From contig CP002098.1 of assembly GCA_000145985.1 (NCBI GenBank), forward strand, positions 904,182-936,181: a stretch of 32,000 bases of DNA, given 5' to 3'. Origin of the DNA: Ignisphaera aggregans DSM 17230 (lineage in GTDB: Archaea > Thermoproteota > Thermoprotei_A > Sulfolobales > Ignisphaeraceae). Positions 1 to 4,676 of the stretch are shown in pieces; within the stretch, counting starts at the first letter, position 1, and every line of letters starts with the position of its first letter. The notes below the pieces were generated by a model that worked only from the letters and a program-made list of their open reading frames with translations, ran no database searches and was not told where the DNA came from. The position numbers were made by a program, and so were the translations under genes.

Positions 1-838
1 TATCGACTATGTGTCATCAACACTTTGTTCAGCTATGAGAAGTATTATTGCACAGAACATTGGTGTAAATATATCTAGTTTCGATATATCTGTAAGTTCA
101 TCTAAAACTGTTTTTATAGGTGATAAATCTTTTGATGAGGGAGCTCTCTCTAGATTAACAACATTGATAACAATGTCGTCACTTATCTTTAGTATTGCGA
201 TAGCCTTATCATTTCAGTATGGAGCTATATCTATTGCTCAGGAGAAGGAGGAGAGAACTCTTGAGATTTTAGCTGTACAGCCAATTTCTAGGAGGGATAT
301 AGGTATCTCTAAGGTTATTGGAGTTCTTGTGCTTGCGCTAACTGAAGCATCTCTATATATAGCATCATGGATGTATTATCTTAGTTCCATAGGATTGGCA
401 AACGGAAACATCTTTATGGGGCTTGGTGCAATGCCTATAGTATTTCTAATGATAGATATAGTTATTGCTATAGTAGCTCTCACAGTATTTGGACTCATAA
501 TAGGGGTATTTGCAAGAGATACAAGAACTGCAAGTATAGTATCTACACCAATTACATTGCTAGCCATACTTATAGGCACTATGATACAATTCATTGGAAT
601 TCCACTAGAACCTTTACAACTGTCTCTATATTCTATCACACTTATAATGGCTCCAATATGTATCATGATATCATTGATGTTAGGCTATATAGTAAGTGCT
701 ATAGGGGTAATAATAATCAATATTGCTATAGCTCTACTACTTCTATACATCCTTGGAAAGATTTTAGAAAGTGAAAAGATGTTTATTGGTATAGGGTTTA
801 TGGATAGATTTATGAGATTTATGAAGAGAAGTAGATAG
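1..838 (+). CDS. ABC-2 family (NatB-like) transporter permease, 5'-truncated at window edge
   Basis: The frame is open from nt 2 (the listed start at 11 is GTG), so the gene probably begins upstream of the window. Multi-pass hydrophobic protein. The loop AQEKEERTLEILAVQPISRRDIGISKVIG resembles the acidic E-x-E...T-x-E...P-x-S-R...K loop of NatB/ABC2_membrane permeases. A similar loop recurs in the permease at 19725-20522. Confidence 0.6.
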   Translation, partial: IDYVSSTLCSAMRSIIAQNIGVNISSFDISVSSSKTVFIGDKSFDEGALSRLTTLITMSSLIFSIAIALSFQYGAISIAQEKEERTLEILAVQPISRRDIGISKVIGVLVLALTEASLYIASWMYYLSSIGLANGNIFMGLGAMPIVFLMIDIVIAIVALTVFGLIIGVFARDTRTASIVSTPITLLAILIGTMIQFIGIPLEPLQLSLYSITLIMAPICIMISLMLGYIVSAIGVIIINIAIALLLLYILGKILESEKMFIGIGFMDRFMRFMKRSR

Positions 839-2345
839 GGTAGTACTGCTTAAGAACTCTTTTAATATCCACCATAGGTGTAAATGTTTTATATGCGTTA
901 TATGCTATCTCTATATATCTATCCCTATCCTCTTCATATAGATCAACTATATATGTAAGTCTCTTTATAAAATCATTATAGTCTTTCTCATCAATTTTTG
1001 CAGCCTCATCACTATTAATATCTATTATCTTATCGAGCTCCTCACCAAAGAACCAACCATTAGAGTTATCCTCTATAAGCTCAAGACTTGCACCATCTCT
1101 TGAGGAAAGTGTTGGAATACCATTTACACCTGCTTTCATCATACTAGTTCCACTAGCTTCCCAACAACTAAATGGTGTAAATAGCAGTAGATCTGATCCT
1201 GATAGGGAATAGTATGCAAATTCTATTCCATAGCTTGGATAGAAGAAGAAGTTGCTTAAAGCTTTTGAGAATTTAACAAATGTTGTTGCTATCTCTTTAC
1301 CCCATTCATCGCTTGGATGAGGCTTTCCTGAAACAACTATAAACACTCTATCCTTTAAATCGCTATTCTCCTCAATAAGCCACTCAATAAAATATGGCCT
1401 CTTATACTTTGTTATCCTCCTAGTCCATGCCAAGATCATTCTATTTCCAACATTCTTACCAGATAATACATTTATAAGAGATATGAATTCTCTCCTTAAA
1501 TTATTTCTATACTCCACAAATCTATTTAGATCAACATTACCTTCAATTCTCTGCCATCTATCTAGATAGATTCCATTAGTTATATAGCTCATCTTAGATG
1601 CATATCTAGGAAAAGTACTTTTTGTCACCTCTAGATGTTTCCTCGATACCGTAAATACTTGTGAGACTTTCTCCATAGCAGCTTCTGTCATAGTCTTAAC
1701 ATTTGGTAACGATATATCTAATACCTCTTCAGCTTCTCTACAAAGCTTTGGATGTCCCCATGGGCCAGGGGTATGGGTAACAAATCTTATATTCATATTA
1801 TCGGGCAATAGATATGGAACTAGTGCTAGATGTGCCTCCTGTATATCTATATATGAGACAGGGGTTGTTTGAGATATCTTCTCAATAATTCTACTTGATA
1901 CTGCTGCAGCTGTTATATAATATGTACATTCATCAGAGTGATGCCTATAGAGATATCTAAATAGTCTTGCTGTATATAGAGGTCTCTTCACCCTATATAG
2001 AACTGCTTTTGCAGAACCAAAGCTATATTCATATAAATCGACCTCGGCTATTAGCTTCCCCTTCCTACTTCTAACATCCATAGACTCTATATATCTTAGC
2101 TTTGATAGAAATGCTAATGTATGTCTATGCCTCACTTCTACATGTCTAGCCTTATTAGCTATATCCCAATCAACATATCCATTTGAATAAAATGGAACTA
2201 TGAGCATATATGGCAAACCAATTTTTCCAGCACCATAAAACTTATCAGCCTCTAAAACCCCTAGACCACCAGCATAATTTGCAGATCCCTCAAATGCTAC
2301 CTCCATAGCAACACTAATAATTATACCCTTATCAGTATTAGCCAT
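819..2345 (-). CDS. alpha-glucan (glycogen/maltodextrin) phosphorylase, short archaeal GT35 type
   Basis: 508 aa with an ATG start. N-terminal YAGGLGVLEADKFYGAGKIGLPYMLIVPFY matches the GT35 SGGLGxLAGD...LGxP motif. C-terminal WEASGTSMMKAGVNGIPTLSSRDGASLE matches the PLP-lysine motif EASGTSNMK...DGAN-E of glucan phosphorylases. Confidence 0.8.
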   Translation of the reverse strand: MANTDKGIIISVAMEVAFEGSANYAGGLGVLEADKFYGAGKIGLPYMLIVPFYSNGYVDWDIANKARHVEVRHRHTLAFLSKLRYIESMDVRSRKGKLIAEVDLYEYSFGSAKAVLYRVKRPLYTARLFRYLYRHHSDECTYYITAAAVSSRIIEKISQTTPVSYIDIQEAHLALVPYLLPDNMNIRFVTHTPGPWGHPKLCREAEEVLDISLPNVKTMTEAAMEKVSQVFTVSRKHLEVTKSTFPRYASKMSYITNGIYLDRWQRIEGNVDLNRFVEYRNNLRREFISLINVLSGKNVGNRMILAWTRRITKYKRPYFIEWLIEENSDLKDRVFIVVSGKPHPSDEWGKEIATTFVKFSKALSNFFFYPSYGIEFAYYSLSGSDLLLFTPFSCWEASGTSMMKAGVNGIPTLSSRDGASLELIEDNSNGWFFGEELDKIIDINSDEAAKIDEKDYNDFIKRLTYIVDLYEEDRDRYIEIAYNAYKTFTPMVDIKRVLKQYYPIYFSS

Positions 2346-2407: not shown

Positions 2408-2470
2408 TTGTCTCAGCATGGGGCAGGAGCTCTTCATCAATCAACACCGGCCCAGTTATCATCATCAGAT
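2408..2470 (-). ncRNA. candidate C/D-box sRNA (2'-O-methylation guide), 14-nt spacers
   Basis: Minus-strand read: CUG-AUGAUGA (C, 2465-2459), UAACUGGGCCGGUG (14 nt), UUGA (D' variant, 2444-2441), UUG, AUGAAGA (C', 2437-2431), GCUCCUGCCCCAUG (14 nt), CUGA (D, 2416-2413). The guides are GC-rich within an AT-rich spacer. A TATA-like GTATATAAGG (revcomp of 2492-2501) is centred about 27 nt upstream of the predicted 5' end. It is less certain than its neighbour because the spacers are 14 nt rather than 12 and D' is non-canonical. Confidence 0.5.
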
Positions 2471-2502
2471 AAAACTATATTTTTCTACAAACCTTATATA
2501 CT
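2471..2502. promoter_or_regulatory. back-to-back TATA-like boxes driving the two divergent C/D sRNA genes
   Basis: AAAACTATATTTTTC (2471-2485, plus sense) is centred about 27 nt upstream of the plus sRNA 5' end (~2505). CCTTATATAC (2492-2501, read on minus as GTATATAAGG) is centred about 27 nt upstream of the minus sRNA 5' end (~2470). The spacing fits the archaeal TATA-to-TSS distance. Confidence 0.45.
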
Positions 2503-2504
2503 AT

Positions 2505-2560
2505 ACGATGAAGAACTGTCGAGCGGCTGAAGAATGATGAAGTGGTCCTACACTGAATTT
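2505..2560 (+). ncRNA. C/D-box sRNA (2'-O-methylation guide), canonical archaeal architecture
   Basis: AUGAAGA (C, 2508-2514), ACUGUCGAGCGG (12 nt), CUGA (D', 2527-2530), AGA, AUGAUGA (C', 2534-2540), AGUGGUCCUACA (12 nt), CUGA (D, 2553-2556). It has exact 12-nt spacers and a 3-nt D'-C' loop. The C-box variant keeps G3, A4 and G6, which are needed for the k-turn. It is intergenic, with a TATA-like box upstream and a T-rich tail (AUUUAUU). Confidence 0.8.
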
Positions 2561-2763
2561 ATTGTAGATCTTCTAATTATGACATTCATATATATTCCAT
2601 AAAGTGCTATGATTAGACCTACTAAAGAGATTGCATATATTATTAATAGAAATGGAATATCAATATATATCCTTAGTGATATTATTGCTAAAAGAGTTAT
2701 AAAACATATGAGTATCAATAGAAATCCTGTTATTAGGAGAAACCTAGGGCTATTTATTTGCAT
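2548..2763 (-). CDS. hypothetical small membrane protein (2 predicted TM helices)
   Basis: 71-aa ORF whose ATG (2763) lies 14 nt inside the end of the upstream ABC ATPase gene, an operon-style overlap. It has two long hydrophobic stretches and no recognisable family. AT-rich genomes generate such ORFs by chance, and its 3' end overlaps the plus-strand C/D sRNA. Confidence 0.3.
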   Translation of the reverse strand: MQINSPRFLLITGFLLILICFITLLAIISLRIYIDIPFLLIIYAISLVGLIIALYGIYMNVIIRRSTINSV

Positions 2764-3712
2764 AAAGCCAGCACTTTACATAGTGATTCTTCTTTATTTC
2801 AATTTCAATGGGATCCTTCATACATATATCCATTGCGAAGGGACATCTAGATCTAAATCTACAACCAGGAGGAGGATTAATTAAGCTTGGGGGTTCACCT
2901 GCAGGAGTCTCTCTAAATATTTTCCTATTTCTAGGATCTGGATCAGGAATAGCTTTAATCAACGCTTGTGTATATGGATGTAAAGGTTCTTTTAATAAAT
3001 CTTGTGTTGGAGCTCTCTCAACAAGTTGACCAGCATACATGATAGCTATTTTATCAGAGAAATATTTTGTTGTAGCAAGGTCATGGGTTATATATATGAT
3101 TCCAAGGTTATGAATCTTTTGAAGCTCTCTAAATAGAGTTAGTATTTCTACTCTAACAGATGCATCGAGCATTGAGACTGGTTCATCAGCTACAACAAGT
3201 TTTGGTCTTAATATTAATGCTCTTGCAATAACAACTCTTTGTTGTTGTCCACCTGATAATTGATGTGGATATTTATTGAGGAAATCTTCAACAGGTGTAA
3301 GTCTTACTTCTTCAAGAGCTTTATATATTCTATCTATTCTCTCTTCCTTTTTAATACCATGTATAATTAAAGGCTCTTCCAAAATTCTCTTGATAGTCAT
3401 AAATGGTGGTAGAGCTCCATATGGATCTTGTTGAACATATCCAACTTGTCTCCTATACCACATAAGCTCCTTTCCATCTAAATTAGCTATATTTCTTCCC
3501 TCAAATAGTATTTCTCCCTTTGTCGGTTTATAGAGCCTTAGTACAACTTTTCCAACAGTAGTCTTACCACTTCCAGACTCTCCTACAAGAGCTAAAATTT
3601 CACCTCTATCTAAATCAAAAGAAACATCTTCTACAGCTTTAACATATCCAACAATAGAGAGAAATCTCCTTATTGGATACCACATATATAGATTTCTAAC
3701 ACTTAATAACAT
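2750..3712 (-). CDS. Opp/Dpp-type ABC transporter ATP-binding protein (OppF-like)
   Basis: Walker A GESGSGKTT, signature LSGGQQQR, Walker B LVVADEPVSMLD, H-loop ITHD. The C-terminal Cys-rich oligopeptide-transporter extension is PPPGCRFRSRCPFAMDIC...C. I prefer ATG 3712 (MLLSVRNLYMWY), 1 nt after the upstream stop with a GGGGG upstream. The ORF track extends to a TTG at 3760. Confidence 0.9.
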   Translation of the reverse strand: MLLSVRNLYMWYPIRRFLSIVGYVKAVEDVSFDLDRGEILALVGESGSGKTTVGKVVLRLYKPTKGEILFEGRNIANLDGKELMWYRRQVGYVQQDPYGALPPFMTIKRILEEPLIIHGIKKEERIDRIYKALEEVRLTPVEDFLNKYPHQLSGGQQQRVVIARALILRPKLVVADEPVSMLDASVRVEILTLFRELQKIHNLGIIYITHDLATTKYFSDKIAIMYAGQLVERAPTQDLLKEPLHPYTQALIKAIPDPDPRNRKIFRETPAGEPPSLINPPPGCRFRSRCPFAMDICMKDPIEIEIKKNHYVKCWLYANK

Positions 3713-3713
3713 G

Positions 3714-4676
3714 TTACTTCCCCCCATATAACCAACATCTAACATACACACCTTTCTCAATACTTATTAGAGGAGGCTCCTCCCTCCTACAAATATCCAT
3801 AGCAAAAGGACACCTAGGATGAAATCTACAACCAGGAGGAGGGTTAATCAAGCTTGGTGGTGTACCTTTAATATATGTTATATTCTTATCCTCTCTTAAC
3901 GATGGTACACTTGACAACAATAGCTGTGAATATGGGTGCAAGGGTTTTGTATAGAACGTATCAGCATCACTAAGCTCAACAATTTTACCTGCATACATAA
4001 CACCAACTTTATCTGCTAAATCACTTGCTAGAGCAATATCATGAGTTATGAAAATATAACTAATACCTTTTTCCAATCGTACTCTCTTCAACAAGTTCAT
4101 GATATTAGCTTGTGTTATTACGTCTAAAGCTGATGTAGGTTCATCTAATATTACTATCTTCGGCTCAGTTATGAGAGCCATAGCAATTATTACTCTCTGT
4201 CTCATACCACCAGAAAGCTCAAATGGATATCTATTAATAAATTCATTGGGAATGCCAACATATGTAATCATCTCAATAGCTTTCTTAATTGCTTCATCCT
4301 TACTATAGCCTTTATGATATATTAGTGGCTCTATTAGCTGATCACCAATCTTTATAACAGGATTGAGAGAATTCATAGCTGCTTGAGGAACAAAAGATAT
4401 TTTAGACCATCTAACTCTAGAATTAAGTTCAGCTTCATTTAACTTTGAAATATCCTCACCATCCAAGATAACTTTACCATCATATAGAAATACATTTCTT
4501 GGCAGAAGCTTTAATATTGCTCTCGCCAACGAACTTTTACCACTTCCACTCTCACCAACAATAGCTATACTCTCTCCTCTATCTATCTCAAAGCTAACTC
4601 CATCTACAGCTCTAACAACGCCTTTCAATGTTATATAGTATAGTTTAAGCTGTTCAACTTGCAACATTGTATCCAT
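3714..4676 (-). CDS. Opp/Dpp-type ABC transporter ATP-binding protein (OppD-like)
   Basis: Walker A GESGSGKSS, signature LSGGMRQR, Walker B IVILDEPTSALD, H-loop ITHD, C-terminal PPPGCRFHPRCPFAMDIC motif. The ATG lies 1 nt after the permease stop. Confidence 0.9.
   Translation of the reverse strand: MDTMLQVEQLKLYYITLKGVVRAVDGVSFEIDRGESIAIVGESGSGKSSLARAILKLLPRNVFLYDGKVILDGEDISKLNEAELNSRVRWSKISFVPQAAMNSLNPVIKIGDQLIEPLIYHKGYSKDEAIKKAIEMITYVGIPNEFINRYPFELSGGMRQRVIIAMALITEPKIVILDEPTSALDVITQANIMNLLKRVRLEKGISYIFITHDIALASDLADKVGVMYAGKIVELSDADTFYTKPLHPYSQLLLSSVPSLREDKNITYIKGTPPSLINPPPGCRFHPRCPFAMDICRREEPPLISIEKGVYVRCWLYGGK

Follow-up and report, generated by a model that had tools for sequence, protein, structure and literature searches.

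The 202-bp gap between a glycogen-phosphorylase-like gene and a 71-aa ORF of Ignisphaera aggregans DSM 17230 is confirmed as a locus of two box C/D guide RNA genes, ordinary for archaea, that point away from each other. The explanation that we favor as a whole, at a probability of roughly 80%, is that these are two independent, divergent C/D sRNA genes whose guides pair with the central domain of nascent 16S rRNA. All coordinates below are positions in the window, i.e., the whole 32,000-nt stretch of DNA that was analyzed (CP002098.1, 904,182-936,181, forward strand), which comes from a genome that is a single contig of 1,875,953 bp with ~35% G+C. The features of the locus are collected in Table 1.

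Table 1. Coordinates of the two sRNA genes, their boxes and guides, and the flanking elements in the window.
Feature	Position	Strand	Basis or remark
Carbohydrate-phosphorylase-domain gene (glycogen-phosphorylase-like)	819-2345	-	
Box C/D sRNA gene, minus strand	2411..2469 (ends approximate)	-	boxes, sub-threshold Rfam, strict motif, ortholog in G015
D box CUGA (minus sRNA)	2413..2416	-	sequence
D guide GCUCCUGCCCCAUG, 14 nt (minus sRNA)	2417..2430	-	16S 612-621 or 23S 3001-3013
C' box AUGAAGA (minus sRNA)	2431..2437	-	identical in G015, G007 and G008
D' box UUGA (minus sRNA)	2441..2444	-	same UUGA in G015 and sister-genus copies; followed by linker uug
D' guide UAACUGGGCCGGUG, 14 nt (minus sRNA)	2445..2458	-	pairs 16S 541-551
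C box AUGAUGA (minus sRNA)	2459..2465	-	sequence
Putative TATA-like box UAUAUUUU for plus sRNA	2476..2483	+	predicted from sequence
Putative TATA-like box GUAUAUAA (minus-strand reading) for minus sRNA	2494..2501	-	predicted from sequence
Box C/D sRNA gene, plus strand	2504..2558 (ends approximate)	+	boxes, sub-threshold Rfam, strict motif, orthologs in G008 and G013
C box AUGAAGA (plus sRNA)	2508..2514	+	sequence; U5 to A variant
D' guide ACUGUCGAGCGG, 12 nt (plus sRNA)	2515..2526	+	core CYGTCGAGCG
D' box CUGA (plus sRNA)	2527..2530	+	sequence; followed by linker aga
C' box AUGAUGA (plus sRNA)	2534..2540	+	sequence
D guide AGUGGUCCUACA, 12 nt (plus sRNA)	2541..2552	+	pairs 16S 669-676
D box CUGA (plus sRNA)	2553..2556	+	inside final 9 nt of convergent 71-aa ORF
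71-aa ORF, after OppF-type ABC ATPase gene at tail of Opp-type ABC operon	2548-2763	-	
OppF-type ABC ATPase gene	2750-3760		

The layouts that had been claimed from the letters alone, C-12nt-D'-3nt-C'-12nt-D on the plus strand and the same plan with 14-nt spacers on the minus strand, were read directly at 2508-2556 and 2413-2465, respectively. Both RNAs carry the terminal C (RUGAUGA) and D (CUGA) boxes, with one U-to-A change in the plus C box; the resulting AUGAAGA variant recurs in the homologs of G024, G072, G122 and G149. In both, a short loop (k-loop) lies between the internal D' and C' boxes (CUGA-aga-AUGAUGA in the plus and UUGA-uug-AUGAAGA in the minus RNA), and in the minus RNA a G·U takes the place of the expected Watson-Crick pair between C' position 6 and D' position 1. 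The usual archaeal C/D guide spacer is 12 nt: the plus RNA has 12/12, while the minus RNA exceeds that with 14/14 (14/15 in its ortholog in the congener G015), and its motif of 53 nt lies near the top of the 47-56 range among the 22 candidates in the genome. The guides have 50-71% G+C versus 35% for the genome, in agreement with the earlier observation that they are GC-rich in AT-rich surroundings. Moreover, genes for L7Ae, Nop5 and fibrillarin are all encoded in the genome, each above Pfam cut-offs, with fibrillarin adjoining Nop5. Each RNA would bind L7Ae at its C/D and C'/D' motifs, recruiting Nop5 and fibrillarin, and each RNP would pair its two guides with nascent 16S rRNA in the central domain.

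A genome-wide scan with a strict motif (C-N10-15-D'-N2-9-C'-N10-15-D) returned 22 matches in the 1.88-Mb genome, both sRNAs among them, whereas the reversed genome and five simulated (first-order Markov) genomes gave zero matches, so that two chance copies 42 nt apart can be dismissed. The 20 further candidates all lie outside the window, mostly have 11-13-nt spacers and are presumably unannotated too. When searched against Rfam at gathering thresholds, the whole window gave no match. In E-value mode, on the other hand, both strands aligned end to end with archaeal C/D families only, all sub-threshold: full-length with sR14 (E 4.4e-5), sR17 and snoPyro_CD for the plus RNA, and with sR35 (E 1.3e-3) and sR41 for the minus RNA. 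The scores in bits against gathering thresholds were 26/38 (sR14), 25.1/36 (sR17), 22.9/60 (sR35) and 22.5/45 (snoPyro_CD), none reaching its threshold because the guides are unrelated to those families.

Both box sets and the guide cores are kept across species and genera, which is the conservation in related genomes that the original prediction had staked itself on. In the congener G015 the minus RNA is conserved in synteny: it precedes the phosphorylase ortholog, which shares 74% protein identity, and has the same boxes, UUGA and AUGAAGA included; its pair of guide cores also occurs in G007 and G008 (at other loci) and in a sister genus (G017, G022 and G024), and the D' core CUGGGCCGG is kept in all of these genomes (G015, G007, G008, G017, G022 and G024). 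Orthologs of the plus RNA with both guide cores occur at non-syntenic loci in the congeners G008 and G013, and its D' core CYGUCGAGCG is kept in 17 genomes from three families; no ortholog was found in the G015 genome, which is only 85% complete. The conserved core CGCUCGAC(A/G)G has no other occurrence in the I. aggregans genome. In sum, boxes, spacing, sub-threshold Rfam similarity and conservation support, at the level of sequence, the assignment of both elements as box C/D sRNA genes.

As a side observation, the minus guide modules of the sister genus stand in permuted order (L021 of G022, L022 of G024 and L023 of G017, at ~1450-1570 of each locus): a guide(CUCCCGCCCCA)-CUGA part is followed, after 3-6 nt, by AUGAUGA-guide(GCUGGGCCGGCA)-UUGA, 3 nt and (G/A)UGAUGC. 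No C or C' box was present within ~40 nt upstream of the first guide at these loci, and TATA-like words lie 10-25 nt upstream. Each could be a C/D gene in circularly permuted form, functional once its RNA is circularized, or what is left of a tandem pair.

With respect to targets, the four strings given in the original prediction are correct reverse complements of the guides, but none is present in full length in 16S rRNA, 23S rRNA or the 46 tRNAs (with or without introns), and genome-wide they match only their own antisense; spliced tRNA junctions offered no better match for the guides. What survives of the notion of rRNA- or tRNA-targeting guides is pairing through cores of 8-11 bp, and all four conserved cores fit 16S 540-715 in the central domain (16S positions follow the numbering of the I. 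aggregans 16S rRNA itself). In a single-genome shuffle test, 18 (minus D'), 151 (plus D), 561 (minus D) and 979 (plus D') of 1000 shuffles matched or beat the 16S pairing, i.e., three of the four guide matches were no better than shuffles. Scoring that was permissive toward G·U placed two of the four top matches in the 16S region, the other two being at 23S 3000 (minus D) and 23S 2507 (plus D'). Therefore, with the shuffle tests weak for three guides and the unbiased scoring in favor of 16S for only two, the target calls rest on comparative data. By the criterion of at least nine consecutive Watson-Crick pairs over the +5 position to the target (PMC4644070), the minus D' guide has 10 bp and the other three have 6-8 bp. 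Target sites of double guides usually lie close together (PMC4644070, PMC6009581), and under a double-guide rule that demands sites within 100 nt and a score of 32 (PMC6009581), a hand count put the minus RNA at ~40 and the plus RNA at ~33, so that the other three guides pass by this relaxed rule only.

The D' guide of the minus RNA forms 10 consecutive Watson-Crick pairs plus one G·U with its 16S site, with G544 at +5, and the paired core is exactly the part that is conserved in relatives. Its D guide forms nine Watson-Crick pairs plus one G·U with 16S 612-621, with G613 at +5, while its orthologs in G015, G007 and G008 form 10-11 bp with 16S GGGGGCGGGA and place +5 on G614. As a double guide, the minus RNA would direct 2'-O-methylation at two sites 69 nt apart, ~G544 (D') and ~G613/614 (D). 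For the plus RNA, the D guide forms eight Watson-Crick pairs with 16S 669-676 and would direct methylation of G670, the nucleotide at +5. In the 16S of G015 (L044, locus positions 1668-1680), GGGAAGACC stands where I. aggregans has GGGAGGACC, and consequently the +5 nucleotide of the plus D guide is A there and not G.

The D' guide of the plus RNA behaves differently from the other three: its complementarity to 16S 704-714 is broken precisely at +5, where an A faces C707. Since 2'-O-methylation requires a Watson-Crick pair at +5, the conserved A·C suggests that methylation at C707 probably does not happen; the prediction of methylation 5 nt upstream of D' and D is accordingly matched by Watson-Crick pairs at +5 for three guides but not for this one. 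Pairing at this site nevertheless appears to be retained: the 704-714 site is invariant in all relatives recovered, and position 10 of the guide, opposite G712, is limited to C or U, a signature of pairing. There are documented cases of a conserved +5 mismatch in guides that still pair, and these have been read as binding without modification (PMC6009581); they occur in 16 of 262 double guides (PMC4644070). Furthermore, a fully complementary sister variant, GU(U/C)GGGCG, exists in G024, G020, G023, G042 and G062, and the two variants never occur in one genome. In other genera, the plus D' guide is combined with guides against 16S GGGGGAGCGAA, 20-30 nt downstream. As judged from these patterns, the plus D' guide probably either binds 704-714 without methylation, 37 nt from the D target, where it would hold or chaperone the rRNA, or would methylate U692 in an 8-bp register.

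The second of these options, that the plus D' guide (GUCGAGCG) was retargeted from C707 to 16S CGCUCGGC (689-696, yielding Um692) and that the 704-714 complementarity is historical, is the strongest of the competing explanations, possible though clearly the less probable one. Several lines of evidence speak for it: i) at 689-696 the guide forms seven Watson-Crick pairs and one G·U in one run, with a Watson-Crick pair to U692 at +5; ii) relative to the fully complementary GUUGGGCG variant it has two substitutions, and each of them makes for better pairing at 689-696; iii) all 16S sequences recovered from the Ignisphaera family have U at the 692 position; iv) sR26 of Ignicoccus hospitalis is predicted to target the adjacent C714/729 site pair. 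However, three members of another family, f10 (G072, G122 and G149), have the same guide variant together with a C at 692, leaving a mismatch at both sites. Moreover, the restriction of guide position 10 to C or U fits G712 and not U697 of the 689-696 site, and the double-guide score computed with the latter site comes to 31 by hand count where the rule of PMC6009581 demands 32. Two other candidate targets of the plus D' guide were rejected: 23S 2507 is ruled out since the C at guide position 10 of the orthologs would mismatch there, and matches in tRNA D-arms (seven Watson-Crick pairs plus two G·U) are not distinctive.

The GUCGAGCG guide itself has at least three different partner guides within the genus (GUGGUCCUA, AGC(U/C)CCCUAGA and UUCGCUUC(C/U)A) and occupies either the D' or the D position (loci L057 of G001, L060 of G012, L062 of G014 and L058 of G016). 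These changes of partner are a compact case of guide-module shuffling among sites of the 16S central domain.

For the D guide of the minus RNA, 23S rRNA near 3004 competes with 16S G613, with an extra base and a substitution beside the D box having shifted its specificity; we regard this as unlikely, yet the 23S site is kept as a rival target since its duplex energy is equal to or slightly better than that of the 16S site. At 23S 3001-3013 the guide forms 10 Watson-Crick pairs and three G·U, with seven consecutive Watson-Crick pairs over +5, and its 3' end (CAUG, versus CCCA/CCCG in the orthologs) pairs only there. On the other hand, pairing by hand showed that the orthologs of G015, G007 and G008 have D guides with a better fit to the 16S site and that the D guide of I. 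hospitalis sR110 covers the same 16S site, while the proximity of this site to the D' target (69 nt) is as usual for double guides (PMC4644070, PMC6009581). Thus 16S G613/614 remains the preferred target of the minus D guide.

The TATA-like boxes that had been placed about 27 nt upstream of each RNA were recovered at 2476-2483 and 2494-2501, with centers ~25-28 nt upstream of the presumed 5' ends (~25-27 nt for the plus and ~27 nt for the minus RNA). Over the 22 candidates in the genome, TATA-like hexamers are concentrated between -36 and -31 relative to the C box, and the words of both sRNAs fall there. Because each word lies ~25-28 nt from the 5' end of its own gene, it is closer to the start of the other one. 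The two C boxes are 42 nt apart, which makes a distance of ~35 bp between the predicted 5' ends reasonable. From this TATA spacing, independent promoters that overlap divergently are plausible, and transcription of each RNA would start from its own box; only ~20% of archaeal C/D genes carry such a TATA-like motif (reviewed in PMC7994747). A scan for sigma-70 promoters and terminators found nothing, a bacterial model being irrelevant to an archaeon.

The divergent pair was seen only here and in none of the other genomes searched: at the syntenic site, G015 has the minus RNA alone, and the plus RNA of G008 and G013 lies elsewhere, unpaired. The pair is therefore a local arrangement, and its limitation to one genome fits the known mobility of C/D genes (PMC7994747). 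A more ambitious interpretation is that the two RNAs form a co-regulated unit under one compact bidirectional promoter, in which the four guides would clamp four neighboring stretches of 16S 540-715 during folding and one of the contacts is deliberately methylation-dead. The latter element draws on the A·C at +5 in 17 genomes of three families, exclusive of the methylation-competent sister variant. We consider this interpretation improbable; were it true, the locus would be a natural on/off pair that sets guide binding against the methyl group. Two independent genes thus remain our reading of the locus.

A function mainly in cis or antisense on the neighboring mRNAs, for one or both elements, is less probable still. 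In that case the minus RNA would be transcribed together with the phosphorylase gene as its leader, a k-turn bound by L7Ae, and the plus RNA would serve the 71-aa ORF and the Opp operon as a 3' antisense partner. Consistent with this, 66 nt separate the minus RNA from the phosphorylase gene downstream of it on the same strand, a linkage that is kept in G015, and the final 9 nt of the 71-aa ORF, including its stop TAG, are antisense to the D guide and D box of the plus RNA; 5'-sense and 3'-antisense overlaps with genes are recognized categories of C/D RNAs (PMC6009581, PMC7994747). However, the stretch from the minus RNA to the start of the phosphorylase gene has a TATA-like word of its own (2380-2387), the antisense overlap of the plus RNA is just 9 nt, and the guide cores are kept in G007, G008 and G013, where synteny is absent; such conservation despite different neighbors points to targets in trans.

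As to the 71-aa ORF, its two-helix product has counterparts of 67-80 aa in three congeners (L076, L077 and L078), with weak identity (27-37%) but at a conserved position directly downstream of the OppF-type ATPase gene, and it is probably a real micro-protein gene.

Finally, although neither sRNA has an Rfam gathering match and three guides have only short matches to rRNA, chance look-alikes or decayed pseudogenes that form no functional RNP are highly improbable, given the empty control genomes and the conservation of both box sets and guide cores across species and genera.

Archaeal annotations routinely miss C/D sRNA genes, and the present analysis adds two for I. aggregans that are missed by Rfam gathering thresholds, together with predicted 16S methylation sites at G544, G613/614 and G670. 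Both belong to a well-known class of RNAs, as new members not catalogued so far, and they leave the understanding of that class unchanged. They are linked to guide modules common to Sulfolobus and Ignicoccus, and the guide with the A·C mismatch forms, with its fully complementary sister variant, a small natural experiment on binding versus methylation. A search of the available literature for Ignisphaera sRNAs found no publication. All traits of the locus have already been described for archaeal C/D sRNAs, including double guides with sites within 100 nt, reshuffled guides, +5 mismatches and 3'-antisense overlap with an ORF; only the compact divergent promoter and the C707 variant pair are mildly unusual.

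Two of the closest known RNAs come from the RNA-seq set of Dennis et al. 2015 (PMC4644070). The first is sR19 of Sulfolobus acidocaldarius, whose C' box and D guide (AUGAUGU-AGUGGUCCU...) match the G008 ortholog of the plus RNA nearly letter for letter. The D guide of the I. aggregans plus RNA is the same as that of sR19 over 9 nt in identical register, which places +5 on the same 16S nucleotide, the predicted target G691 in the numbering of PMC4644070 and G670 here (mapped by our own position count). On the other hand, the final 3-4 guide bases beside the D box differ from sR19, so that just 8 bp form with 16S in I. aggregans, and sR19 carries an unrelated D' guide, for which no target is predicted. 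The second is I. hospitalis sR110, like the minus RNA a double guide when its sequence is paired by hand: the D' guide pairs with the CCGGCC site of 16S and the D guide with the CUAGGGGGC site, i.e., the same two sites. Unlike those of the minus RNA, however, the sR110 guides follow I. hospitalis rRNA with an offset of one to a few nt, and the boxes are G-rich I. hospitalis variants.

The plus D' guide resembles the sR33-type families of Pyrobaculum (Lui et al. 2018, PMC6009581), in which complementarity is conserved despite a +5 mismatch and the mismatched guide, lying near the target of its partner guide, is read as binding without methylation. In those families the target is 23S C2045 and the mismatch C:U, whereas here they are 16S C707 and A·C; in addition, and unlike sR33, the plus D' guide has a fully complementary sister variant in related genomes. 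Finally, boxes and spacing of the two RNAs align in full length with Pyrococcus sR14 (RF01145), sR17 (RF01144), sR35 (RF01123) and snoPyro_CD (RF00095), but with scores of 22-26 bits, below the gathering values of 36-60 bits, and with unrelated guides. Therefore, the I. aggregans RNAs share the architecture of these families without being members of them.
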